Shown piece by piece: positions 67 to 21,864 of a stretch of DNA of 64,000 nucleotides. Made by a program: the position numbers and the translations under genes. The stretch lies in assembly GCA_965222905.1 (NCBI GenBank), contig OZ244976.1, forward strand, positions 7,376,488 to 7,440,487, in the 5' to 3' direction. Within the stretch, counting starts at the first letter, position 1. Each line of letters begins with the position of its first letter. The stretch comes from Vicinamibacterales bacterium. Its GTDB lineage: Bacteria > Acidobacteriota > Vicinamibacteria > Vicinamibacterales > UBA8438. The notes beneath the pieces are model-generated. The model ran no database searches, was not told where the DNA came from, and saw only the letters and a list, made by a program, of their open reading frames with translations.

Positions 67-2153
67 CCCAAGTTTAACAGCCGCAGTACTAAGCAACGCG
101 GAATCAGCAACTTACAGCGACAAAAGCGCTCGAGTGGCACTACAAACCTGCGCAAACCGGGAAATGGGTCGGTCAGATGGTTGTCTTGCGGACGCCTCCC
201 GGTTGCGGGTCGACGCCGAGCGCGTCGTAGATGGCCCGCTGTTCGGGTTCGGCCTGCGTGGCGGTGCGCACGTGCAGGGTGCGCCCGTCGGGGCGCCGGA
301 AGGTGGCGGTGACGCGCTGCTGGCCTTCGAGGATGCGGCGCAGGGTGGTCCAACTGGCGTGTTCGCCGTGGGCTCGCAGCCGGGTGCGGATGACCTGCAC
401 GAGCTGGTAGGCGATGACGGTGATGAACAGGTGGCCATCGGCCCGCTGCGGCTTGTGGTGGTAGATGGGGCGCAGGCCGAGTTCGGACTTCAGTGCGCGG
501 AAGACGGCTTCGACGTCGGTGAGGGTGGTGTAGGTGCGCCACAAGGCGTCTTCGTCCCAGTCGGTCTCGCTGCTGCGCAGGCAGTAGACGCCCGGATGGG
601 TGGCCATCGAGCCGTCCTGGGGGCGACGGGTCCAGGTGACGGCGGCGGCCTTCTCGCCGGTCTGGTCGGGGGTGACCTCGATCTGGTAGTGCTTGGCGAC
701 GCGGGTATGCTTGGCTCTCAGTCGCCCAATGCGCTGCCAGACCTGTCCGAGGCGCTTGTGGGCGCGGGGGCGCGCCAGCCCCTCGTTGAGCGTGGTCAGC
801 GCGGCCTCGAAGCGGGCGGCGGCCCGCTCAACGATGGCCCGCTCCTTGTGGGCCCGCTCTTCGGAGTAGCAGTACAGGCGGACCTCGCCGGGGTCGGTCG
901 AGACGACCTTGTGCAGATGCACGGTGTGGTTCGACTGCGTGCGGACCGCCACGGCGGCCTCGGCGTCGAACTGCCGGTGGCGTTCACGGCTGACGACCAG
1001 ATAGCGGTAGCGGTTGTCGCGCAGCCACCCGATGGCGGCCTCGGTGGCGACGCCGCGGTCCATCACCACCAGGGCGCCGGCCGGCGCATCGAGTGCCTCC
1101 AGCATGCCGGCCAGGGTGCGGTGTTCCCGGACGTTGCCGGCGAAGACCTGCGAGCGGCGCACGAAGCCGCTGGCGTCGAGCATCAGGCCCAGGGTCAGCA
1201 GCGGACAGTCGCTGCGCTTCTCTTTCGAGTGCCCGCGCTTTGCCTGCGGCTGCGCGCCCGCCTCGCCTTCGAAATAGGTGTTGGTCAGGTCGTAGAGGGT
1301 CACCGTCGGCTGCAGGTCGAACAGTCCCATGGCCCGCTCGAACAGATGCGCCTCGATCGCCTCGCGGTGCTTCACCAGCGCATCCGAGGCGCGGTAGAGC
1401 TGCATCGGGCTGACGGTCTCGAAGTCGACGCCGAGCAACTCGCCGAGGCCGCTGCGTTCCTGCAGCCAGCGGTGCGTGGCGCGCTCCGAGGCCGGCTGGG
1501 CCAGGCGTCCGACGACGGCGCCGGTCGCCGCGGTGCGCAACGCGCCGTTGACGCCCAACTCGGTCAGCAGGGCCGGCAGGCCCAATTGCTCCAGGGCCCA
1601 CAGGCCGACCTGCTCGACGCCGACGCTGCGGGGGCGGACCAGGCGCAACGAGTCGACGTCGACCGGCTGCACGTCTGTCGGCCCGGCTGCTTGTCCCTGC
1701 ACCGGTGTGCCGCGGGCGACCAACTGTGCGGCTATGCGCTGCGCTTCGCGTTCGACGGCGGCCGGGCAATCGGCCACCAGGGGCGTCTGGCCGGCCAGGA
1801 TGTCGTCGCTGCGGGAGCAGACCAGCGGCCATTGCGCCTGGGGAATGTCGAAGTGGCGTCCGAGATTGAGCAGGGTGCGCTGGCGGACGGCGTTGCCGAT
1901 GCGCTCGGAGTGGACGAGGCGATGCGAGAAGTAGGGCTGTCCGTCGGCGGTCCGCCGGGTTTGGGTGCGGCGAATGAACACACGCCCACGATAGCGGGTG
2001 CACGTCCCCAGAAGCAACAACCACTCACACGATTATGGCACTACATTCAGTACCGCCAACACCCGATCCTTTAGAATCAACAAGTTATGGGGATGCGATC
2101 CTCGGAATATCGCCTAAATCTACAAAATTGTCTGGAATCTTGCTAAAGATGGG
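67..2153 (-). mobile_element. IS1634-family insertion sequence
   Basis: Ends CCCAAGTTTAACA and CCCATCTTTAGCA (reverse complement). Flanking direct repeat (G)CTAT(C) of 4-6 bp, depending on where the ends are placed. Confidence 0.9.
173..1981 (-). CDS. IS1634-family DDE transposase
   Basis: VFIRRT N-terminus, LYDLTNTYFEG, GHSKEKRSDC, VVMDRG and LKSELGLRPIYHH motifs. Probable GTG start at 1981. Confidence 0.92.
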   Translation of the reverse strand: MFIRRTQTRRTADGQPYFSHRLVHSERIGNAVRQRTLLNLGRHFDIPQAQWPLVCSRSDDILAGQTPLVADCPAAVEREAQRIAAQLVARGTPVQGQAAGPTDVQPVDVDSLRLVRPRSVGVEQVGLWALEQLGLPALLTELGVNGALRTAATGAVVGRLAQPASERATHRWLQERSGLGELLGVDFETVSPMQLYRASDALVKHREAIEAHLFERAMGLFDLQPTVTLYDLTNTYFEGEAGAQPQAKRGHSKEKRSDCPLLTLGLMLDASGFVRRSQVFAGNVREHRTLAGMLEALDAPAGALVVMDRGVATEAAIGWLRDNRYRYLVVSRERHRQFDAEAAVAVRTQSNHTVHLHKVVSTDPGEVRLYCYSEERAHKERAIVERAAARFEAALTTLNEGLARPRAHKRLGQVWQRIGRLRAKHTRVAKHYQIEVTPDQTGEKAAAVTWTRRPQDGSMATHPGVYCLRSSETDWDEDALWRTYTTLTDVEAVFRALKSELGLRPIYHHKPQRADGHLFITVIAYQLVQVIRTRLRAHGEHASWTTLRRILEGQQRVTATFRRPDGRTLHVRTATQAEPEQRAIYDALGVDPQPGGVRKTTI

Positions 2154-5376: not shown

Positions 5377-5456
5377 GAATTATGTGAAGTGCGACGTGTC
5401 CAGGACCGGCGAAAAAGCTCTCCTGATCTCTCCCGATCTCCTTTGTCCCATTGGAG

Positions 5457-9131: not shown

Positions 9132-10587
9132 GGGATTGTCCCGTTCGTTGTTGAACTTCGGGTGACGGACTCCCGGTCTCCTCTACGTAGTCATCTATAT
9201 TACGCCACGTCAGCAACCATGCCGTCGGGCGGAGCCAGCGCGTCCAGGGCAACGACCAGGTGCTGCAGATCACGGTAGCCCCGGACCCGCCGGAAGCGCT
9301 TCTCCGCCTCCACCAGCGCGCTCGCCACCCAGCGTTGAATCATCTGACCACCGCGCCAGCGCTTGACGTTGCGCGAGTAGTGCTCGACGCTGCCGTTGAG
9401 GTTCTCGATGATGTTCGTCGTCCGCAGGGTACGCTGCAGCGCACCCGTCAGACCGAGGCGCTGCACGGTCAGCGTCTCGTCGAGTCCTTCCCGGATGGAG
9501 GCCGCTGCCCCGGGGTGCTCGCGCTCGAGCGACTTGGCCAGCCGCTCGAGCACCCGCGCCGCACGGTCCGCCGAATCGAGGTCCCACGCATCCCGCAACG
9601 CCTTGCCGACAGAGGCGTGCAGCCGCTCGGGCAGATGGCCGATGACGTTCCTCCACTTATGGACTTGGCAGCGTTGCACCACGCCGCGAGAACCGAAGAC
9701 GTCGGTGATGGCCCGGCGCAGCCCCGCAGCGCCATCGATGACGAACAGCAACGTCCGGTCCGTCGGCAGTCCGCGCGCCACCAGGTCGCTCAACAGGCCG
9801 GTGGTGACAGCAGCGGTCTCGGTGGCGCCTTCGCGCAGCCCCAGCACGTGTTTCCGGCCCTGGGTGTCGATCCCCAGCGCGATCACCATGCAGTGGTCCC
9901 GGAAGACCTTGCCGTCGATGCAGACCACCCGCAGGTCCAGTTCCCCCAACGGCCGGCCGAGAAACGCCTGGAGGCGCTTGGTCGACAGCGCCACGAACCG
10001 CCGCGACACGGCGCTGCTCGATGTCGCCCGCTCGGTCACGTCGGCCGGCACCGGGTCCAGCGTGCCCGCATACCGGCGTGTCGACACCCCGGCGGCGACC
10101 GCGGCCAGCGTATGCTCGTCCAGCGGGTCGGTGGCCGCCGCCCATTGGAAGCTCGCCAGCGGGACTTCGCCCTCGGCGCTCCGCACCCGCTGCCGTGGCA
10201 GCTCGACCTGCCGTCCGCCGAGCGTCACCTGGCTGTCGACACTCCCGCCGCGCCACGCGGGCCGCTCAACCTGATGGCGCCCCTTCGGGCCACACAGCAT
10301 TTCCCGGTCCGCCTCCATCATCGCCTCCAGGACCTGCAGACCGGTCGCAATGCACAAGCCATGGAATGCTTCCCGGACACCGTTGACCACGCCGAGGACC
10401 GGCAGCGGCACCTGGATCGTGACGGGGCGCGAGCTGGGGGGTTGGCCGGACGTCTTCCGCCTGTCATGCTTCGCCATGGGTGGCAGTCTCCTTTTTTGAT
10501 TGCATCCCCTGTCCTACCACAGGACAGGGGCAGGAGCTGCCACCCGCTTCATCTCAGTTCAAGTTCAACAGCGTTCGGGACATCCCC
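9132..10587 (-). mobile_element. IS256-family insertion sequence
   Basis: Imperfect TIRs GGGATTGTCCCGTTCGTTGTTGAACTT and AAGTTCAACAGCGTTCGGGACATCCCC. GCGCCCGG is duplicated at 9124-9131 and 10588-10595. Confidence 0.9.
9200..10477 (-). CDS. IS256-family transposase
   Basis: AGVSTRRY, VCIDG, LFVIDGAAGL, QRCQVHKWRN and LRTTNIIENLN motifs. Confidence 0.92.
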   Translation of the reverse strand: MAKHDRRKTSGQPPSSRPVTIQVPLPVLGVVNGVREAFHGLCIATGLQVLEAMMEADREMLCGPKGRHQVERPAWRGGSVDSQVTLGGRQVELPRQRVRSAEGEVPLASFQWAAATDPLDEHTLAAVAAGVSTRRYAGTLDPVPADVTERATSSSAVSRRFVALSTKRLQAFLGRPLGELDLRVVCIDGKVFRDHCMVIALGIDTQGRKHVLGLREGATETAAVTTGLLSDLVARGLPTDRTLLFVIDGAAGLRRAITDVFGSRGVVQRCQVHKWRNVIGHLPERLHASVGKALRDAWDLDSADRAARVLERLAKSLEREHPGAAASIREGLDETLTVQRLGLTGALQRTLRTTNIIENLNGSVEHYSRNVKRWRGGQMIQRWVASALVEAEKRFRRVRGYRDLQHLVVALDALAPPDGMVADVA

Positions 10588-11865: not shown

Positions 11866-12876
11866 CTAGCCGCTCGACCGGGCCGACGCGCGAGAGAGCG
11901 CGTAGCCACACTTCTGGCAACTTACCAGCCCCTGCACGAGGCTCGGTTCGATCGTGCGCCGCCGGGCGTGCACCTTGTTCTCGTGCAGCAGTTCCTGTGC
12001 GCGCGCGAAAGTCGACTCGTCCACGATCGCCGGCACCGGGATCTCGATCCATTCCTCGCGCGGCCGTTCGTGGTTCGCACTGTCGCGACTGGCGGCGCCG
12101 CCGCGCAGCCGTAGTGGGCGCGTCAAGCGCTGCCGTTGGGCTCGTTGCGTCTTGCCGAAACACGCCGTGCCGCGATAGGCCGGGTTGCGCAGCATCGCCC
12201 ATACGGTGGAGCGTTCCCAACGGGTGCCGACCTTCCGCGTGGGCACGCCTTGCTCGTTGAGCCAGCGGGTGATCGCCGCGATACTCCAGCCCGTGACGGT
12301 GTAGTGCTCGTAGACGTCGCGGACAACGCGCGCTTCGGCGTCGATGACGACGTACGCCGCGGGGTTGTCCTCACGCTTGCGAATGTAGCGATAACCATAG
12401 GGAGCGCCGCCCAGGACACTGATCTCACCGGCTCGCGCGCGGTGCCGCTTGCCACGACGCGACCGTTCGAGGATCTGAGCGCGTTCGTACTCGGCGATCA
12501 TGCCCTGAAACTGCACCAGCAGCTGATCCTCGGCCGTGGCGCTCGACGGAGCATTGAGGAAGCGGGCTTCGACCCCCTGGCGGGCGAACTCTTCGATCAA
12601 CAGCACCTGGTAGGCGTACTTCCGACTCAGCCGATCCGGACTGTGCACGAGCACCACCTGGATGTCGCCGGCGGCTGCGAGGTCGCGCACCTGTTCCAAT
12701 CCCGGCCGTTCGAGAGTCGCCCCGCTATAGCCTTCGTCTTCGAAGATCCATTGCTGGGGCGCCTCCAGATCGAGCGTCGCGGCCCAATCGACCAGCGCCG
12801 CCGTCTGGCTCGCGATCGTGTGCGCTTCGCGCTGCTGGTTCGAGGACACGCGCGTGTAAATCGCCGCCATCTGCAT
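11866..12876 (-). pseudogene. Large serine recombinase LSR2, truncated just after the first CxxC of the Zn ribbon
   Basis: AAIYTRVSS catalytic motif, EDEGYSGATLERPGL, DRLSR, recombinase domain GAPYGY and LRNPAYRG. Ends GLVSCQKCG...SSG*. Confidence 0.9.
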
Positions 12877-13027
12877 GTGGACGCTCCATTCCATAAGCTG
12901 CAACCGGACGCATACGGGCCGGCACCAACAACGTGTACGCCTGGGCGATCTTGCTGTCGCGAAGTCGATCGAACGTGCAATCGAGCTGCACCTGCCGGGG
13001 AGCACTTCGTGGTTGTCGTTCACCCAC
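12725..13027 (-). CDS. Small hypothetical accessory protein overlapping the LSR2 start
   Basis: Translationally coupled between the HTH gene and LSR2. RQVQLDCTFDRLRDSKIAQAYTLLVP motif. Confidence 0.5.
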   Translation of the reverse strand: MGERQPRSAPRQVQLDCTFDRLRDSKIAQAYTLLVPARMRPVAAYGMERPHADGGDLHARVLEPAARSAHDREPDGGAGRLGRDARSGGAPAMDLRRRRL

Positions 13028-13352
13028 GTCGCTGACGGAAGGTGTCCAGGAACGCCGTCACCGCCTGGGTGACGACTTGTCCGAGGGAGAGTCCGCTCTC
13101 GCGGGCATAGGCGCGGATTGCGCGTACGGTGCTGACCGGCAGCTTGAAGGTGATCGCGACGGTCGGCTCGACCGCCGGCAGCGGAGCGCTCAGCCCGGCT
13201 GCTTCCTGGAGATAGCGGTAGGCTTGCCGGCGGGACAATGCAAACTCGCGACCGAGATGGCGGGCCGCCTCGGCGCGTTCCATCTGCTGCCCGAGCAGCC
13301 GGTACGCGGCGTTGAGCAAGCGCGCCTTGTCGGCCTTGGTGGCCCGCGCCAT
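13020..13352 (-). CDS. Small DNA-binding protein (HTH plus ribbon-helix-helix-like)
   Basis: AARHLGREFALSRRQAYRYLQEA helix-turn-helix, followed by ITFKLPVSTVRAIRAYARESGLSLGQVV. Confidence 0.7.
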   Translation of the reverse strand: MARATKADKARLLNAAYRLLGQQMERAEAARHLGREFALSRRQAYRYLQEAAGLSAPLPAVEPTVAITFKLPVSTVRAIRAYARESGLSLGQVVTQAVTAFLDTFRQRRG

Positions 13353-13461
13353 GAGTCATACACATATTACCTCTTGAGACGCAAGTCAAGTACCGGTCGG
13401 TCTCGCCAGCCGGTGATCACCCGATCGAACTGAAAGTTGCCTTTTGCGTTCGGGGAGTAGC

Positions 13462-13812
13462 GACGCCCCCTTGGGGCGTTCCCATCGTGCGCGGCACCAG
13501 GGTTCCGTCTTCCTGCTGCATGGGAGCGGTCAGCCACCGCTGCACATAGAGCAGAATCCACCGGCACCGGGTGTACTTCCTGACCGCACGCATGACGAGC
13601 GCGTGGTCCAGGTTGTCAAAGAAGCCGCGGATATCCAGATCGATCACCCAGTCATAACGCCAGCATCGCTGCCGGGCTGTCGTGAGTGCGTCGATCGCGG
13701 ACTTCCGCGGGCGATACCCATACGAATCGGGATGGAACTGCGGCTCCACGTCCGGTTCCAGGTACATCTTGACCACCGTCTGGGCAATTCTGTCAGCGAC
13801 AGTGGGGACGCC
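13462..13812 (-). pseudogene. Class D group II intron RT, middle fragment (RT2-RT4)
   Basis: GVPTVADRIAQTVVK...DSYGYRPRKSA...RCWRYDWVIDLDIRGFFDN...RWLTAP...GTPQGGV, RmInt1-like. Confidence 0.9.
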
Positions 13813-13864
13813 GGCTTCATAATGCACCTCCTGCAGCACGGCTTCGGGATTCTCGTGCGACCGT

Positions 13865-16552
13865 TCAAATTCTCGAGGAGTTTCGGACCCAGGCGCGCAA
13901 TGTCTCCTTTTTGTCGTCGTCGAAGGCGATCCAGTACGGCGAGCCGTGGTTAGGACAGTGCCCTAAACTAGTTTGCCACATGCCAGTTTCCTGGTCATAC
14001 TGGAGGTATGAAGCGAGATATCGAGCTGGAAGCGACCCTGGTTGCGAAGTATGCCGTGGTCGCGCCGGTGTTGGACGAGCGCAGTCGCCGCCGGTGGGCG
14101 GCGGCCGAGTCGCTCGCTGTCGGCTACGGCGGCGACGCGGTGGTTTCGTCGGCCACCGGTCTGGCTCGGGAGACGATTCGCAAGGGACGCCGGGAGATTG
14201 CCCCCGACGAGGCGCCCACCGACCGCATCCGACGCCCTGGAGGCGGACGGCTCCGCATCCAGCAGGATCAACCCGGCATCCAGGCCGCGCTCGAAGCGCT
14301 GGTGGACCCGCTCACGCGCGGCGACCCGACCTCGCCGCTACGCTGGACGTGCAAGAGTCGCGCGAAGCTGGCGGGGGCGCTCGTCGACCGCATCGGGAAC
14401 GTCCGGACGGCGACCGGGCTCCGGGTCCTGGCCGAACTCGACGCCGGGCAGTATCCTACGGGCGTCACGGTGACCAAGGAACAGATGGACGCACTCGCGC
14501 TGGTTCCCGATGCGTTTCACGGGGAATGGAATTACAAACTGTTACCCCGATGAAGTTGACAACTTTATATCGATCACTGTCCTAGGTCGTCGAGCCGTGA
14601 CTACGCCGCGGTCGATCCAGTAGTAGACCACATTGCGGCTGACGCCGAGTTCGTCGGCGACCTGACGGACGCTGCGCTCGCCGGGGCGCTTGAAGTCGGG
14701 AGCCGGAATCCGGTGCTTGTGGCGGATCCAACGGACCATCGAGACGTTGAATGCCCCGCCTTTGGCGCTCCGGCGACCCTCCCGGTTCAGCGCTGCTGCG
14801 ACCTGCTCGTCGGAGCGCTCGCGAGCCAGCTCGCGCACCCGGTCGACGACCTCGTCGGGATACCGGAGGCGATCGGCAATGTTGGCGGGCAGCGTAACCT
14901 CGAGGTCTTCGCAGGCCCCACCCTGCCACCGGACATGCAAGATGGCGGTCTTGCGTTCGCCGAACCGCTCGACGGTGATGTCCTTGATCACGAGCCGGAG
15001 GATGCGCTTCTTGTCCTTCGCCTTGGTCGTGGGCGCGTTCCACAGGCGGGGGAAGTCGTGGGCGAGCGCCGCCACCCGGGCGCGCTGCTCCGGCGTGACC
15101 ACGAGCGCTTCCTTGCTCTGAAAGTCAGCAAACTGCGTCCTGACCTCTTCGAGCCGCACCAGGGCGTCGTTCCAGCGCTGCTCGAGCGTCGCGGCCACGA
15201 GGCGATTCGACGGATCGACCTCCTCGTAGCGGCGCTGGGCCAACTGCGCTTCGTACTCGGCTCGTTCCAGGCGCATGCGCCATTGGCCGGACATCGCCTT
15301 GTCCCGGTGTTTCGAGCTGCCGTAGCGCTTCCTCGGCGACCTCGAGCTCGGCAGGTTCGAGCACCGCCAGCATCCGCTCCGAGACCGCGGTGTCCAGCAG
15401 GTCGCAACGCAGGCTCATGCAGCTGGTGGTCGCCACTCCTTCGCGCCGCCGCGCGTTGCATTCGTAGGTCGGGTAGATGCCGCCGTTGCCCTTGTAGCGG
15501 ACGGTCAGTCGGCGACCGCAGCGCCCGCACAGCAGCAGGCCTTGGAGCAGTGCGAGTCCTTCCCGCGCGGCGCCGCTCAAGAGCATGTGCTCGGCATTGG
15601 TACGGTTGTTCTCGAGCAGCTGCTGGTTCCGCTCGTACTCCGGCCAGGAGACGTAGCCGTCGTGGTGATTCTGGATCCGCACGAGCCAGGCGTCCAGCGG
15701 GACGCAGCGCGTGCGCATGCGGACGTCGCCTTCGGGGGAAACCTCCTTCGTGCTCTGGTGACGCCCGAAGACATACGCCCCGGCATACGTGGGGTTCTTG
15801 AGAATGTCGAGCACGCGGTTGTGGTTCAGCCGACCCCAGATGAGTCTGCCGTCCCACGCCCCGCCGTAGGCGCGCTTCGGGAACCGCAGTTGCTGTCGGC
15901 CGAAGTGGTGCACGACCGCGTAGGCGCTGCCCGTCTGGCGGAAGACCTCGAAGACCAGCCGGACAGCGCCCTGGACCTCCTGGTCCGGATCGAGCACGAT
16001 GCGCCCCTCGTCGGCGTAGCACAGGCCGATCGGCAACGGGAAGCGGAGCTCACCCTTCTGGGCCTTGTGGAGCTTGCCGCCCTGGAGGCGCGCGCGAATG
16101 ACGTGCAGCTCGGCCTGGGCGATGGTGGCCTTGAGGCCCAACAGCAGCGCGTCGTTGAAGTCCGCCGGGTCGTAGCAGCCGTCCTCGTCGATGACCAGCG
16201 TCCGGGTCAGCGCGCAGATCTCGATCAACCGATGCCATTCCAGGTTCGAGCGGGCCAACCGTGAGGCTTCCAGGGCGAAGATCGCGCCGACGCGGCCCAG
16301 CGACACATCGGCGACCAGCGTCTTGAAGTCCTCGCGGTTGGTCGTCTGCGCCCCCGACTGCCCGAGGTCCTGGTCGAGGATCCGGATTCGCTCCGGCGCC
16401 CACATCATCTCGACGGCCCGGTTCCGCAGGTCGTACTGCCGCTCGGTACTCTCCTGGTGATGGCGCACCTGCCCCATCGTCGACTGCCGGATATAGATGT
16501 AGGCCGGCTTCTGCAGGTGGTGGCTCTGTACTTTCGACATCGTCAGCACCAC
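13865..16552 (-). pseudogene. Large serine recombinase LSR1 with C-terminal HTH extension; frameshift near 15310 and mini-IS insertion at 13953-14582
   Basis: AYIYIRQST catalytic motif, DQDLGQSG, LEASRLAR, LLCGRCGRRL Zn ribbon. Removing the mini-IS joins ...TARRP to NHGSPYWI...NSSRI*. Confidence 0.88.
13953..14582 (+). mobile_element. Internally deleted ISAzo13-family element (630 bp)
   Basis: TIR GGACAGTG/CACTGTCC with a TA duplication. ORF 14008-14553 fuses the ISAzo13 N-terminus (LDERSRRRWAAAES, RGDPTSPLRWTCKS) in frame to the C-terminus (YPTGVTV, FHGEWNY). Confidence 0.85.
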
Positions 16553-16703
16553 CCTCGATCAGTTCCTGACGGGTGTGGGACGGAAGCGCGTGCCCGCTCG
16601 TCGCAGCGGCCGCGCGCTCGGAAGCGATCCAGCACTGCAGCATGTTCGCGGTCAACAGGCCGGCGGTCTGGACATCGACGGGCACGGCGGCCGCCATCTG
16701 CAT

Positions 16704-17048
16704 TCAGTCGATCGGCTCCCGACGTCGCAGCAGCTCGAGGTTGATCGCGGCGATCTCGTCGAGGAGCTGTCGCGTCCGGCGGTAGTTGGCGACGAACTGC
16801 TCGACCTGGCTGCGATGCTCCTGCGGCACGTAGACCATGACCGGTCGCGCCTTCGGCATGCTGACCGACAGGTAGACCTTCGGACCGTGGCCGATACCGC
16901 GCGCGCACTTGCACCCTGGTCGTCCGCAGCGCTTGAAGCGTTCGATGAGCGAGCCGCGCAGGATGGCCTTCAGGGACGGGAGCTGCCGCAGCAGCATTGT
17001 CCGGCGCCTCCGTAACGTACTCGCCAAGCGTGTTTTCAGACCAGTCAT
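16704..17048 (-). CDS. DUF6788-like small protein (CGRPGCKC motif)
   Basis: LRGSLIERFKRCGRPGCKCARGIGHGP.VYLSVS pattern, located upstream of LSR1. Confidence 0.75.
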   Translation of the reverse strand: MTGLKTRLASTLRRRRTMLLRQLPSLKAILRGSLIERFKRCGRPGCKCARGIGHGPKVYLSVSMPKARPVMVYVPQEHRSQVEQFVANYRRTRQLLDEIAAINLELLRRREPID

Positions 17049-17078
17049 ACAACTGGTCTGATACTACACCTCTCGACC

Positions 17079-17385
17079 TCATTTGGGAAGCCCTCGGTCG
17101 TCGGCCTGCTCCAAGGCCGCCAACAGCTCGGTCAGCGCGATGAGCTTCACGAAATCGAGGACATGAGCGCCGCTCGCAAGATCCGCCGCCGCGGCCGGAA
17201 CCTCTCGATCCGTCCACTCGCGGGGCACGCAGAACGTACCTCCGGAGGTGCCCTGCAGAATGAGCGTGTCGATGCCGGAGACGCGGCGCGTCTTCAGGAT
17301 CGGAAACCGCCGACCCCGGAGTGGATGAAACGGGTGGGTGATCTCAGTCCACCCCGACGGCTCGTTGGGGCGATGTGCAGTTCGC
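17079..17385 (-). CDS. DUF5372-like small protein; start uncertain at the element boundary
   Basis: ITHPFHPLRGRRF...VPREWTD motif. No clear start codon inside the element. Confidence 0.6.
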
Positions 17386-17388
17386 GAT

Positions 17389-18191
17389 GACCGTGGGAAT
17401 GCCCAAGCGTCGCTCACTTCCGTCCTTCTTCGGTATCCCAACCGACCGGACCGGAGGCGGGAAGTACGTGCCCGACGACATCCGATTCCAAATCTTATAG
17501 AGATTGTTCTTCAGGTCCTGCTCGAACATCTCGACAGACTCAGCATCGACGCCAGCTGCTCCGTGGTTCGCCTTGACCCGAGTGTAGGCCTCCCAAACCA
17601 CCCACTTGGAAATATTGAACGGCTTCGCGTGGCTCGACGGCTCCTCCCGCGCGCGCGGTTGACCGTCGGGACACGCTGGATGACGCGACCCCTTTGCTCC
17701 ATCGAGTTTCCCCGACTTCATCGCTCGTACGGGTCGCTCCGCCCCTGTGCCTCGCATCGGGCTTCTCATCCTTGGGGGTCGGCCCCTTGGATTTCTCCCT
17801 TCACATCGAGGCGACAGGTTCCCACGTTCCACACAAGGGCCTGGTGCAGGGTCACGCCACCTTTATGCCGGGTGCCGCCCAGCCAAGCTGCAGGCTCCCG
17901 CTGGACTTGTCCCGGGTTAACGACTCGCCCCGGTTTCGACACCGTCCCTACGCTTTCGACACGTTGCCGGTGGTTCATACACTTCGTCTCCCTGCACCCT
18001 ACCTGACGCGGTCAAGCCGCGCCGTTTCCGTGACGCTTACCACCTCGGCTCTTGACCGAGGCAGCGCACGACGGTTTGAAGCCTCCCCCTGCCGGGCGGC
18101 TCCGAGGGGCCTACCCTCATCCCTCATGCAGCATGGCTGCAGCTAGTCTAGGTGGCCATCTCGGCCTCCTTTCCGCGCCTTCGTGGCGCAC
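17389..18191 (-). mobile_element. Class D group II intron, 5' part (ribozyme 5' domains plus RT N-terminus); 3' end not found
   Basis: Starts with GTGCG at 18191. RT reads KPFNISKWVVWEAYTRVKANHGAAGVD...NLYKIWNRMSSGTYFPPPV...RRLGIPTV. EBS1/EBS2 match the 5' exon. Confidence 0.88.
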
Positions 18192-20597
18192 AATCATCGG
18201 CGTAGCGCACGATGATTGCGTCGCCTGTGACCTCGTGGCTGCGCCATTTCTTCTGGAACCATAGGTCGAGGACGTAGTGCAGGTAGATGTTCGCCAGGAC
18301 TGGTGAAACCACCGAGCCTTGGGGAGTTCCCCGCAGATTGTCCCGCCACTCGCCAGCTTCCATGACGCCGGCGTTCAACCACTTGATGATGAGCCTGATG
18401 ACCCGCTTGTCCCCGATACGGTGCTCGAGGAACCGGACCATCCAGTCCCGCGAGACGTTATCGAAGAATGCGCGGATGTCGCAGTCCGCCACCCAGTTGA
18501 TCTTCCGCCGTGTCAGTCCGACCGCGAGCGCGTCGAGCGCGTCATGCGCCCCGCGCCCGCGCCGGAATCCGTAGCTGAACCCCAGGAACTCCGCCTCGTA
18601 TATCGGCGTCAGGATGGTCTCCGTCACCGCCTTCTGGACTATCTTGTCTTCGATGGCCGCGACGCCGAGCGGTCGTGTGCCGCCATCCGGCTTCGGAATG
18701 TTCACCCGCCGTGATGGCGTCGCCCGGTACGCTCCCGAGTGCACGCGGTCGTGCAGGTCGGCCAGCCGGCCTTCCAGCCCTTCCTCGTACATCCGCCACG
18801 TCATGCCGTCCGCGCCGGCCGCTGCATCCCTCTTCAGCTCGAAGAACGCTTGGCGCAACGCATCGACCGTGACATGGTGGAGAAGCGCCGTCAGACGCTC
18901 CTGTGGCTCCCGGCGTACGAATTGCCGTATCCGGTCGGCCGCCTGTGACGCGCTTTCCCGGCGCTGCGTCCGGCGCGCGCTTTGGCTTTCCGGATTCCCC
19001 TTGGGCTCGGTCCTGGGCTCCATTGGCTCCGCAGGGACCGGAGTCCCCTTGTTCGCCAACTTCACAGCTACTACGACCGAGTCTGATTTGGGTGCGGCTC
19101 TTCTTCGTAGAGGAGTTTTCGCCCTATTCATGGGCCTTTTTGCCCGCGGATGCGTCTCTCCAGTGCTCATTTCGGGGGGACAGCAACCAAGCCAGCGCGT
19201 ACCCGCGTCTTTCCGGCGGCCAGCCGAGCCTCGAAACGGTACCGAATACCGTCGGTCTGTCCCCCTCGGGCGCGCTCCCTTCTGGACATTCGCGCGGCGT
19301 TCTGGTACGGTTCCATGGGCAGGGGGACAGACCTGTGATGGCTGTGACGACAGGATTCCAGGGACGTAGATTCGACGTGCCAGAGGCGCGAACCGGCGTC
19401 CCTCGCATCGATCTCCCGAGCCCGGCCCCGTGCGCAGCGGCCGATGCTGTCTTCGCGGATGCCAAAGCCTTCCTCTCCTCCAACGAAGCCCGGCAGATGA
19501 GCGAGAGCGAACTCGAACGGGAACTGCACCGGCGGGGCCAGAAGTTGGTACGCAAGCTCCTGCAAGGACATCACGACCAACGCAGCCCGGGACAGGCTGC
19601 CGGTCCGGCCGAGGACGCCAGTGGTGTCGAGTGCTCGGCGCGGCGCGAGCAGGATAGCCACGCCGAAACGACCTCCGGCACGATGCCGGTTGTGGGTCTG
19701 GGCTGCGCGCGGCGCGGTCACGACGGCCTGCATCCGCTCGATGCCGCGCTGAACCTGCTGCCGGAGCGCTCCTTGGTCGATATGCGCCGCCGCGTGACCA
19801 TCGCGACCGCTTCGCGGGCACCACCGCGTACGCCCTGGAAGCCACAGTGGTACTCGACATTATCCACGTGGCAGCGGCGATGCGGCGTGCGGTGCTCGTC
19901 GCCCAGCTCATTGAAGGCCTGTCGGCATTTGGCCCGCGACCGGATGGTAGTCGACCGGCGCACGGTGACACTTGGCTGCAGTTGCGACGGTCCTCAAGCC
20001 GCCACGGGCCGCCGGCGCATTGATGCGTACTGAGACCCTCCACCAAGCGCGCGAGTACCAGCGGAACACCCCCAGCCGTCGCTGACCGCACAAGTACCAT
20101 CGGCCACCGGTCCCCTCCGCTGCTCCCTCACCACGCCGTGACGGATCCAATTGCCTCCTGCCTCGCTGCCGCAGAGACTGATTCGGCCGCCGACGAAGAA
20201 GAGCCGCACCCGTCTGATTTCTCCATGCCGTTCATCTTTGGTTACGGATTCCTCCTTTCCTCAGCGACCCCGCCCACGACAGCGGGATGGCATGGAGACC
20301 TCCCAGGTCCCGGTTCAGCGCGTACGTGCGTGCCTGGGTTCTTCGACACCGCGGGATTCCGGCCCCCCTCGCCATATCGGTGGGACGGATGCTGCCTTCG
20401 GTTTCCGGCGAAGACCTCGGCATCCCGGACGGAAATTTCTTTCGGTGCTCAATAGCCCTGCCCGCACGCGCCCCTGTCAACGCTTGACCCCCGCCCTCGC
20501 GGACGGTGGCCCATGACTCGGGGTGGAAGTGGTGGCTCACCTTCTCCTTCCTGCCGGACTCTCACCGGCTACGCTGACACCAGTTAGCCTGGCGCAC
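18192..20597 (-). mobile_element. Class E-like group II intron, 5' part; RT truncated right after YADD
   Basis: GTGCG at 20597. EBS1 CGCCGG (20405-20410) pairs with IBS1 CCGGCG. RT reads RLTALLHHV...YIPK-like NIPKPDG.TRPLG..EDKIVQ, GTPQGSVVSP, RYADD. Class assignment is by motif resemblance. Confidence 0.85.
19090..20211 (+). mobile_element. Non-autonomous ISKra4-like element, copy 2 (1122 bp), inside the class E intron RNA
   Basis: Same 19-bp TIR as copy 1. 9-bp TSD GTCTGATTT at 19081-19089 and 20212-20220. Near-identical to 10620-11744 in inverted orientation. Confidence 0.88.
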
Positions 20598-20683: not shown

Positions 20684-21864
20684 TAGTGTCCTGCCCGATA
20701 AATGCATTTATATAACAGGCTGACTGTGTCACCCTCTTCTGGCGGGAGGGATGCGATGGCACGTCCGATCTTGGTACTGGAGGTGACCCCCGAGGAGAAA
20801 CGGGAGCTGGAACGTCGGGTCGCAGCCTCGACGACGCCCGCGCGTGACTGCCTCCGGGCACACATCGTTCTGCTGCGGAGCGAGGGAGTCGGGCAGCAAG
20901 AGGTGGCCTCGCGCTTGGGAGTGAGCGCCCCGAGCGTGAGCAAGTGGTCGCAACGCTTCGACCGAGAAGGGCTCGACGGCCTCAAGGACAAGCCGGGCCG
21001 CGGGGCCAAGCCGTCGATTCCACTGGCCACGGTCCGGCGGGTGGTCGAGGAAGCGGGCAAGGCGCCGCCGGGCCGGCAACGCTGGAGCACCCGCTCGCTG
21101 GCTCAGGAGGTCGGCATCTCGGCGCACAGCGTGGCGCGCATCTGGCAGAGCCAGGGGCTGAAGCCGCATCGCCTGCGCACCTTCAAGGTTTCCCGCGACA
21201 AGAAGTTCGAAGAGAAGTTCTGGGATGTGGTGGGTCTGTATCTGGACCCACCCGAGCGGTCGCTGGTGTTGTGCTGCGACGAGAAGACACAATGCCAAGC
21301 CCTGGAGCGCACGCAGCCGGGCCTGCCGTTGGGCCACGGTCATATCCGGACGCGGACACACGATTACATCCGGCACGGCACGGTCACGTTGTTCGCCGCT
21401 CTGAGCTACCTGGAGGGCAAGCTGATCTACCGCACCGAACAGCAGCACACGCACGTGGAGTGGCTGCGTTTCCTCAAGCAGATCGACCGCGAGACCCCCG
21501 AAGACGTGGACCTGCACCTGATCGCCGACAACTATTGCACGCACAAGCACGAGAAGGTGGTGAGCTGGTTGCAGAAGCACCCGCGATTCCACATGCACTT
21601 CATTCCGACCTCGAGCTCTTGGATGAACATGGTGGAACGATTCTTCGCAGACCTGACGCAGGACTGCGTACGCGCGGGGAGCTTCACGAGCGTGGCGGAG
21701 CTGGTCGAAGCGATCACGACCTATCTTGCCAGTCGGAACGAGAATCCGAAACCCTACACGTGGAAGGCGGACGGTGCGAAGACTCTGGCCAAGATCCAGA
21801 GGTCTCGGGAGGCTCTTGAGACGGCCTCTCAGGTTATGTAAACCCAATTGTCGGGCAGGCACTA
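20684..21864 (+). mobile_element. IS630-family insertion sequence
   Basis: TIRs TAGTGTCCTGCCCGATAAAT and AATTGTCGGGCAGGCACTA. CTAG target with TA duplication. Confidence 0.88.
20756..21841 (+). CDS. IS630-family transposase
   Basis: HTH N-terminus, CCDEKTQCQALER, THDYIRHGT, HLIADNYCTHK and PTSSSWMNMVERFF motifs. Confidence 0.93.
   Translation: MARPILVLEVTPEEKRELERRVAASTTPARDCLRAHIVLLRSEGVGQQEVASRLGVSAPSVSKWSQRFDREGLDGLKDKPGRGAKPSIPLATVRRVVEEAGKAPPGRQRWSTRSLAQEVGISAHSVARIWQSQGLKPHRLRTFKVSRDKKFEEKFWDVVGLYLDPPERSLVLCCDEKTQCQALERTQPGLPLGHGHIRTRTHDYIRHGTVTLFAALSYLEGKLIYRTEQQHTHVEWLRFLKQIDRETPEDVDLHLIADNYCTHKHEKVVSWLQKHPRFHMHFIPTSSSWMNMVERFFADLTQDCVRAGSFTSVAELVEAITTYLASRNENPKPYTWKADGAKTLAKIQRSREALETASQVM

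Follow-up and report, generated by a model that had tools for sequence, protein, structure and literature searches.

Group II introns that interrupt the catalytic-motif codons of reverse transcriptases (RTs) are a described lineage. Insertion of B.th.I3, M.a.I5, UA.I3 and P.l.I2 in RYADD codons was reported by Tourasse and Kolstø in 2008 (PMC2504315), who in their section 13 credit Dai and Zimmerly (2003) and Rest and Mindell (2003) for insertion into RT motifs; insertion of the lineage into the RT catalytic motif is also covered in PMC6199540. Related by target architecture are RmInt1, RmInt2 and Sr.md.I1 of Sinorhizobium (class D, IIB3), which recognize an IBS1 at exon positions −1 to −7, a linker of 1-2 nt and an IBS2 of 5 nt; RmInt1 and RmInt2 have a 5-nt EBS2 with the 1-2 nt linker, and they lack an endonuclease (En-minus) and retrohome at the lagging strand (PMC4615759). 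Nested introns of Methanosarcina acetivorans and Thermosynechococcus elongatus home to a conserved site inside other introns and form nested arrays (PMC4424553, PMC2882425).

Judged by its sequence, an intron in the 64,000-nucleotide stretch analyzed here (the window) joins the RYADD-homing lineage. The first-pass annotation had left it undecided whether YADD targeting was new; it had been described between 2003 and 2008 (PMC2504315, PMC6199540), and B.th.I3 shares both the loops and the site. On checking B.th.I3 (Bacillus thuringiensis sv. israelensis), we found that its published target, AGGTATGCTGATGACT up to the junction, consists of the R-Y-A-D-D codons plus one base followed by GTGCG, as in the window copy, and that its EBS loops are identical to those of the window family, its EBS2 (AAAGCGUAG) and EBS1 loop (AGUCGUUAACC) equaling those of the window copy. 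The B.th.I3 group further shares a length of ~1.87 kb, a IIB-like type, an RT plus maturase without an endonuclease domain, and exon conservation confined to IBS1 and IBS2. B.th.I3 is 67.6% identical to family member L023 over 1.9 kb. B.th.I3 sits in a retron-like RT and the window copy in a group II intron RT; the window copy is also fragmentary and comes from a Vicinamibacterales-like genome. The kinship of M.a.I5, UA.I3 and P.l.I2 with the window lineage is by published description (PMC2504315), not by sequence comparison.

The window arrangement resembles RmInt1, RmInt2 and Sr.md.I1 in the spacing of IBS1, linker and IBS2. In contrast, these introns target ISRm2011-2, ISRm17 and an IS66-type element rather than RT genes, and their EBS sequences differ. 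Introns on Sinorhizobium meliloti plasmids are ~73% identical at the nucleotide level over 740 nt of ribozyme and RT start, and the RmInt1-like rhizobial relative L003 falls in Rfam D1D4-2, as does the window's inner intron. The F3 introns of T. elongatus differ in that they insert between the first and second ATG of their host's ORF and not at YADD. The M. acetivorans and T. elongatus systems were described within single genomes, whereas the YADD site is used across many phyla. The elements of the window are as follows.

20337 to 20597, minus strand: 5' segment of the outer intron (GTGCG at 20597-20593; Rfam group-II-D1D4-6 match at 20562-20337, 173 bits)
18193 to 19131, minus strand: RT ORF of the outer (host) group II intron, N-terminal part, ending ...IVRYADD (translation, TIGR04416)
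18200 to 18205, minus strand: predicted IBS2, C TAC GC, exon −9 to −14 (−9 to −13 conserved in the family; −14 pair particular to the window copy)
18199, minus strand: predicted unpaired linker, exon −8, third position of the Ala codon (all four bases among relatives)
18192 to 18198, minus strand: predicted IBS1, G ATG ATT, exon −1 to −7 (5' splice junction 18192/18191)
17389 to 18191, minus strand: 5' segment of the inner intron, very probably YADD-homing (GTGCG, domains I-III/IVa, RT codons to GIPTV)
17948 to 17953, minus strand: predicted EBS2, GCGUAG, in a 5' internal loop flanked by two helices with covariation support
17912 to 17933, minus strand: predicted EBS1 hairpin, stem CCGGG/CCCGG, loop GCGAGUCGUUAA, with EBS1 AGUCGUU at 17925-17919
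13813 to 17388, minus strand: serine-recombinase element of ~3.6 kb that splits the inner RT after GIPTV (Pfam; junction sequences)
13453 to 13812, minus strand: second fragment of the inner RT, ~aa 79-198 (ADRIAQ...GTPQGGV; tblastn 67% identity, Pfam RVT_1, translation)

The host RT ORF starts with ATG at 19131 on the minus strand, translates to ...GDAIIVRYADD and is interrupted between 18192 and 18191. Its last codons are CGC TAC GCC GAT GAT, followed by T at 18192, and the inner intron begins with GTGCG at 18191, so that coordinates and translation agree with the annotated placement directly after the YADD codons plus T. The host fragment matches the group II RT/maturase profile TIGR04416 (E 4e-76, profile positions 3-215); the outer intron RT is 42% identical to a class D RT, and the host RT is only ~75% identical to its nearest relatives. 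The inner element is a group II ribozyme by its 5' GUGYG and its domain I-IV fold, and it matches Rfam group-II-D1D4-2 (RF01999) at 18118-18001 with 108 bits (gathering score 36).

By complementarity, two segments of domain I are predicted to read the YADD codons, and both are located in canonical loops. The sequence from 17933 to 17912 is CCGGG-GCGAGTCGTTAA-CCCGG; in intron numbering AGTCGT occupies positions 267-272 (17925-17920) and GCGTAG positions 239-244 (17953-17948). AGUCGU pairs with ATGATT through four Watson-Crick and two G-T pairs, the latter at exon −2 and −5, the third positions of both Asp codons, as had been annotated, and U could form a seventh EBS1 pair with G at exon −7. IBS1 covers both Asp codons and base 1 of the codon that follows. 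The other segment, GCGUAG, had been reported as pairing perfectly with CTACGC at exon −14 to −9. All six bases do pair in the window copy; family-wide only five pairs (−13 to −9) hold, and because the −14 pair is not conserved across the family, the EBS2-IBS2 interaction is effectively 5 bp.

The first-pass annotation had called for a fold of domain I, and a covariation-supported model built from an alignment of 51 relatives agrees that both hexamers are the EBS1 and EBS2 loops: EBS1 occupies a terminal loop, and a 5' internal loop holds EBS2. In the helices flanking the EBS segments, pair counting gave 95.9% of cells paired, with compensatory changes in 28 of 39 pairs, and in 21 of the 51 sequences a G-C pair of the CCGGG/CCCGG stem is replaced by a compensatory A-U. 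RNAalifold on the 51 sequences mis-paired the invariant EBS1 loop; the CCGGG/CCCGG stem was substituted and then checked by pair counting. The single-sequence minimum free energy fold, which is not the basis of the structural result, supported the hairpin and paired part of EBS2 spuriously. Loop and target also covary: a sister intron whose target is an IS6-like transposase (exon ...GATGAGG before the junction) carries CUUCGUU where the window copy has AGUCGUU, and this EBS1 change fits its exon at −1 and −2.

Relatives were collected in two ways. In a genome scan, copies were defined by the EBS2...EBS1 motif alone; 82 of the 102 with a 5' junction lie after Y/F-x-D-D plus one base (69 distinct flanks), a count that is partly circular since equal EBS implies a similar target, which is offset by the covariation and by a metagenome scan defined by the exon junction alone (111 distinct flanks). 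The remaining genomic copies comprise 10 head-to-tail copies and 10 others mostly at decayed YADD sites, and a few pattern matches are chance hits (e.g. L120). Tabulating the 5' exons of homologues, as had been suggested, gave mostly YADD codons in diverse RTs. In the metagenome sample, 66-67 of 68 copies have G as the EBS base opposite exon −2, −5 and −11 (third positions of the two Asp codons and of the Tyr codon), the exon bases at these sites are C or T at about 50:50, and the four EBS variants with A all face T; the annotated wobble-tolerant reading of GAC and GAT fits this pattern. At exon −8 all four bases occur (A 13, C 30, G 20 and T 6 in genome flanks; C 48, G 35, A 17 and T 11 in metagenome flanks). 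The first 3'-exon base (+1) is T in 10 of 11 copies examined, for which only Rfam-defined 3' ends were used.

Full-length relatives encode an ORF of ~415-420 aa with RVT_1 and GIIM, and a Pfam search of them returned no HNH/En domain. The lineage also includes head-to-tail arrays and ORF-less derivatives of ~670-700 nt, and its copies occur in Acidobacteriota, Bacillota, Bacteroidota, Planctomycetota, Chlorobiota, Pseudomonadota, Wolbachia and others. Among 110 non-redundant host N-termini, 105 belong to group II intron RTs and 1 is retron-like; the host introns fall in Rfam D1D4-2, -3/-1, -4, -5 and -6, i.e. at least five structural families. Together, the two scans and the host classification bear out the proposal that the lineage is specialized for the Y-A-D-D codons of RT genes.

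Two other readings of this pattern were weighed. A match of 6-7 nt with wobbles is weak evidence by itself and might reflect chance complementarity at a one-off ectopic insertion; the comparative data refute this, with hundreds of independent copies at the same junction, loop-exon covariation and structural support, and we regard its probability as negligible. Also, a twintron can travel as one composite unit, a point taken up in PMC2882425, and certain identical flanks recur within Vicinamibacterales genomes, as they would if inner and outer introns moved jointly and the recurrent arrangement were copies of one ancestral insertion. However, the distinct exon flanks number 69 and 111 in the two scans, the hosts are 17-75% identical to that of the window (alignment columns average 19% identity) and come from the intron families listed above, and inner copies that are 97-98% identical occupy different host families (IVRYADD, IVNYADD, YARFADD and FERYADD among them). 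Co-mobility as the source of the pattern was rejected on the distinct flanks and divergent hosts, and we consider it very improbable. Because near-identical inner copies occupy different host RT families, the insertions are best read as independent and recent homing events.

A separate question is what the insertions do. The first-pass annotation held that the intron inactivates competing retroelements, which is plausible as an effect and not an established function. The stronger form, that selection shaped the lineage to disable rival RTs at their catalytic site rather than to use a neutral safe harbor, draws on the position of the insertion in the catalytic motif, where an unspliced intron leaves the RT truncated, on the many sampled hosts that are decayed (e.g. 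YADT, YADV, HHADD), and on RmInt1, the closest characterized relative, which gives only 0.07% ligated exons and led the authors of that work to suggest that introns of this kind keep other mobile elements from spreading (PMC3035460). By analogy with RmInt1 only, silencing of the host RT is plausible. However, because the insertions are precise and sense-oriented and joining of the exons restores the host ORF (e.g. YADD/SVACFQ, FADD/LVILID and YADD/FVILCQ, the slash marking the junction), each could in principle be an ordinary twintron; many host RT ORFs are open on both sides of the insertion, and the abundance of the target and its harmlessness to the cell offer another explanation. We therefore think selection as a weapon unlikely.

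The inner element is very probably the 5' portion of a IIB-type (class D/RmInt1-like) intron that lacks an endonuclease and comes from a lineage that retrohomes to (R)-Y-A-D-D DNA. Its anatomy, the loop positions and pairing, the recurrent independent insertions and the restoration of frame support this directly, and by homology with RmInt1 and RmInt2 we infer how it would move. The excised intron RNA would pair with the target's sense strand, EBS1 (5'-AGUCGUU, hairpin loop) with GAY GAY N at exon −7 to −1 and EBS2 (5'-GCGUA, internal loop) with TAY GC at −13 to −9, leaving the last base of the Ala codon (−8) unpaired as a linker. Because each EBS base opposite a synonymous C/T site is G, both codon variants would be accepted. 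Reverse splicing would take place one base past the second Asp codon, and the intron's own RT would make the DNA copy, in En-minus relatives probably at replication forks. The outcome would be a twintron in which splicing of the inner intron restores the host RT frame.

Whether this layout is itself an adaptation is a more tentative matter. It is possible, and we put it forward with some reserve, that the EBS arrangement evolved as a filter matched to codon degeneracy, with G facing two-fold C/T positions and the linker facing the four-fold Ala position; in the same reading, the splice point may be set so that a conserved T, belonging to a hydrophobic codon, comes to be the +1 base. We found no description of this wobble/codon-degeneracy aspect in the literature searched, where absence is not proof of absence. 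If true, one lineage could parasitize essentially any bacterial or archaeal RT gene, occasionally including retron-type RTs. G opposite Y with a linker opposite N is a concrete, testable broad-range rule that may help in designing targetrons against conserved protein motifs. With many phyla and at least five host intron families, the survey widens the scale of a handful of published cases, and it leaves the current understanding of group II introns unchanged. The biological picture is of a selfish RNA element that can choose as its target the active-site codons of other retroelements, which are conserved and abundant, move horizontally and do the cell no harm.

The window copy itself is a dead relic within a pile of nested mobile elements. 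A search of the whole window for domain V (RF00029) found no match even with the threshold at E≤1, and the window copy is therefore a truncated relic; domain VI and the RT C-terminus of the inner intron are also absent from the window. Intact relatives do carry domain V, whose end coincides exactly with their 3' splice site. Most of the inner RT is missing from the window as well, with ~aa 4-83 and 79-198 left. Its 5' segment is 98.4% identical over 803 nt to copies in Vicinamibacterales metagenome-assembled genomes, and tblastn places inner RT aa 4-83 at 17628-17389. The inner RT is interrupted twice by serine-recombinase elements, once after GIPTV and again at 13453, where the second fragment breaks off. 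The ~3.6-kb element contains DUF5372, DUF6788 and a large serine recombinase (Pfam). When the 81-aa RT fragment served as a protein query, the hits were mainly truncated ORFs and exposed a recurrent break after GIPTV, and the same serine-recombinase element occupies the same GIPTV junction in other contigs.

The gene interrupted in the window encodes a group II intron-type RT whose translation ends, before the junction, in ...GDAIIVRYADD. After its last codons (CGC TAC GCC GAT GAT) comes one further base, T at 18192, and the inserted intron starts with GTGCG from 18191 (minus strand). Because D1D4-2 lies within the insert and D1D4-6 upstream of the RT, one intron is inserted in the RT gene of another (the inner and the outer, or host, intron). 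This anatomy is plain from the following features; a sequence check placed the hairpin and both hexamers where the first-pass annotation had them.

20562-20337, minus strand: group-II-D1D4-6 (Rfam, 173 bits), upstream of the interrupted RT
19131 (ATG), minus strand: outer RT ORF (TIGR04416, E 4e-76, profile positions 3-215)
18118-18001, minus strand: group-II-D1D4-2 (Rfam, 108 bits), within the inserted element
17933-17912, minus strand: hairpin CCGGG-GCGAGTCGTTAA-CCCGG
Inner intron positions 267-272, minus strand: AGTCGT
Inner intron positions 239-244, minus strand: GCGTAG

The hexamers had been proposed as EBS1 and EBS2, the intron loops that pair with IBS1 and IBS2 of the exon. In a small alignment of the window, two plasmid relatives at the same site and one relative in an IS6-like transposase gene, the last (exon ...GATGAGG) carries CUUCGUU in place of the AGUCGUU of the YADD introns, and its two altered EBS1 bases match the two altered exon bases, -1 and -2 (counting back from the 5' splice junction). 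A domain I sub-structure tested on an alignment of 51 non-redundant relatives was 95.9% paired, with both-sided changes in 28 of 39 pairs; none of 500 shuffles, nor any slid register, came near the observed value. EBS1 is part of the terminal loop on a 5-bp stem, in which G-C to A-U compensation occurs in 21 sequences, and EBS2 is part of a 14-nt internal loop (5' strand) flanked by two covarying helices. Both hexamers fall inside these loops, and the structure test together with the loop/exon covariation bears out their assignment. The layout is, judged from sequence, the IIB arrangement, and the inner intron has its geometry (IBS1 at -1 to -7, a linker of 1-2 nt, a 5-nt IBS2) in common with RmInt1 and RmInt2, En-minus IIB introns of Sinorhizobium (PMC4615759).

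A genome scan with the loops only (AAAGCGTA-N18-28-AGTCGTTAACC, one genome per GTDB species), whose pattern holds no exon information, returned at least 119 stretches in groups including Vicinamibacterales (many copies per genome), Bacillota, Bacteroidota, Planctomycetota, Chlorobiaceae, Wolbachia, Pseudomonadota and one Brockarchaeota MAG, with a few chance matches (e.g. locus L120). Among the matches listed, 102 copies had a 5' end that could be recognised, with 20 nt or more of exon. Y/F-x-D-D plus one base precedes 82 of these, representing 69 distinct flanks (59 YADD, 5 FADD, and one each of YSDD, YGDD, YCDD, YVDD and YIDD); the 3' end of another copy, in head-to-tail arrays, precedes 10, and the other 10 sites are mostly decayed YADD (YADT, YADV, YADG, HHADD), with one non-RT gene. 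A copy at locus L112 (junction ~730, locus minus strand) has these EBS loops too and lies in a non-RT ORF reading ...HHMQFADD (TTTGCGGACGACG before the junction), an apparent ectopic insertion at a look-alike site.

Since copies chosen by their EBS are bound to have similar targets, we added the reverse, junction-only metagenome scan (TAYGCNGAYGAYN joined to GTGYGCCAYGAA), which found 111 distinct flanks among 120 loci. A match to the group II RT model (E<=1e-25) was obtained for 105 of 110 non-redundant host N-termini; one was retron-like, the host of B.th.I3, a published RYADD-homing intron of Bacillus thuringiensis. With these hosts and the exon counts, the proposed YADD specialisation holds for the lineage. 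Host introns belong to Rfam families D1D4-2, -3/-1, -4, -5 and -6, and hosts are 17-75% identical to that of the window. One composite could have been copied without repeated homing; against this, unrelated host RT families in Vicinamibacterales carry inner copies 97-98% identical to one another, while the nearest relatives of the window's host RT reach only ~75% identity, which indicates that homing was recent and independent. Where Rfam defines the 3' end, exon joining restores the host ORF (YADD/SVACFQYEEDAK, FADD/LVILIDG, YADD/FVILCQG, YADD/IIVIHKC), and the insertions read as precise, sense-oriented intron insertions.

Synonymous sites were counted in the 69 genome flanks of the loop-only scan, among the matches listed:

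Exon -11, Tyr third position: C32, T37
Exon -5, Asp third position: C30, T39
Exon -2, Asp third position: C40, T29
Exon -8, Ala third position: A13, C30, G20, T6

The remaining paired exon positions are essentially invariant in these flanks. Among the junction-defined copies, G is the EBS base opposite -2, -5 and -11 in 66/68, 67/68 and 67/68, and the four EBS A variants face T in every case. Position -1 is T in about two-thirds of copies, and no pairing trend was seen at -14. The wobble reading was thus right and extends to the Tyr codon and the linker. The EBS G may be an adaptation to codon degeneracy or simply the Watson-Crick partner of a GC-rich target in the ancestor; our literature searches found no paper spelling out this geometry.

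The targeting itself is already published. Section 13 of Tourasse and Kolstø 2008 (PMC2504315), citing Dai and Zimmerly 2003 and Rest and Mindell 2003, places B.th.I3 at AGGTATGCTGATGACT, "the RT active site... RYADD", and notes a B-like class without endonuclease domain and conservation of IBS1 and IBS2 only; a passage in Gillis et al. 2018 repeats the description. We found B.th.I3 on pBTHD789-2 with exactly the published target (AAAGCGTAG), the loop ...GGGGGTAGTCGTTAACCTAGG and a 420-aa RT comprising RVT_1 plus GIIM only. The window intron is therefore a Vicinamibacterales-type addition to the already known RYADD-homing introns.

The mechanism with the best support is EBS/IBS-guided retrohoming of the ordinary kind, in which an En-minus IIB intron would enter another mobile element at a conserved site by a pathway that we infer from RmInt1 and RmInt2. 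The observation is confirmed and its interpretation partly supported: EBS assignment, specialisation and wobble tolerance stand; novelty and purpose do not. Inactivation of competing retroelements has some support as a consequence, in that RmInt1 gave 0.07% ligated exons and its authors proposed restraint of other mobile elements (PMC3035460), but frame restoration and intact host ORFs fit a safe-harbour strategy equally well.

The window copy is dead: its RT is cut twice and domain V is absent from the 64,000-nt window. The RT breaks after GIPTV at 17389, where a ~3.6-kb element is inserted, resumes at 13812 (ADRIAQ...) and is cut again at 13453, within the conserved GTPQGGV/ISPLL motif, directly adjoining a second serine recombinase ORF; the remainder is absent from the window. 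Further mobile-element debris surrounds the twintron, including an ISKra4-like fragment on the strand opposite to the outer intron.

13813-17388, minus strand: serine-recombinase element (DUF5372, DUF6788, large serine recombinase); junctions 17389/17388 and 13813/12
11866-13389, minus strand: second large serine recombinase ORF (Resolvase plus Recombinase domains, 174-aa N-terminal extension)
~19330-20033, plus strand: ISKra4-like transposase N-terminal fragment (weak match), within the outer intron between 5' ribozyme segment and RT
20702-21841, plus strand: IS630-type (DDE_3) transposase, just upstream of the start of the outer intron
9200-10477, minus strand: IS256/Mutator-family transposase, downstream of the twintron

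A family of small elements with DUF6788 and a large serine recombinase is lodged at one and the same point in the RT genes of class D introns, between the codons for G-I-P-T-V and A-D-R, in the window (whose element also has DUF5372) and at loci L245, L036, L085 and L244. Other Vicinamibacterales contigs carry the window's element at this junction too (89-99% identity), in one case within an intron that itself interrupts another host RT; L244 holds a divergent element (recombinase 46% identical) at this site of another class D intron, a non-YADD one. The right end of the window's element carries an in-frame mimic, ...E-A-x-V-P-T-V. The pattern resembles site-specific integration at a conserved motif of the RT, of which we found no description.

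ORF-less derivatives of the YADD-homing introns occur at L008 and L084 (Vicinamibacterales, 698 nt) and L012 (Halalkalibaculum, ~668 nt, a length from a domain V regex that also gave some false short introns). Rfam confirms only the 698-nt form, which is complete (D1D4-2 plus domains V/VI). In Vicinamibacterales, short copies and full-length ones (1877 nt) are arrayed head to tail after a single YADD exon, resembling the head-to-tail products reported for RmInt2. A close sister on a Rhizobium sp. T1473 plasmid (L003, 3509) interrupts an IS6-like transposase gene at ...W-H-L-D-E (GAT GAG G); that site and YADD have a GATGA core in common, and retargeting between them needs only two EBS1 changes, plus EBS2 changes. 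On plasmids of this strain, two distinct class D introns also have a D1D4-6-type intron starting directly behind their domain V/VI match, with one sequence shared by both junctions (...GAATTCAGC CGTCTGAG...; L001 ~5393-5400, L003 ~5385-5392), which suggests a reciprocal habit, the other intron class homing into class D introns at their 3' end.
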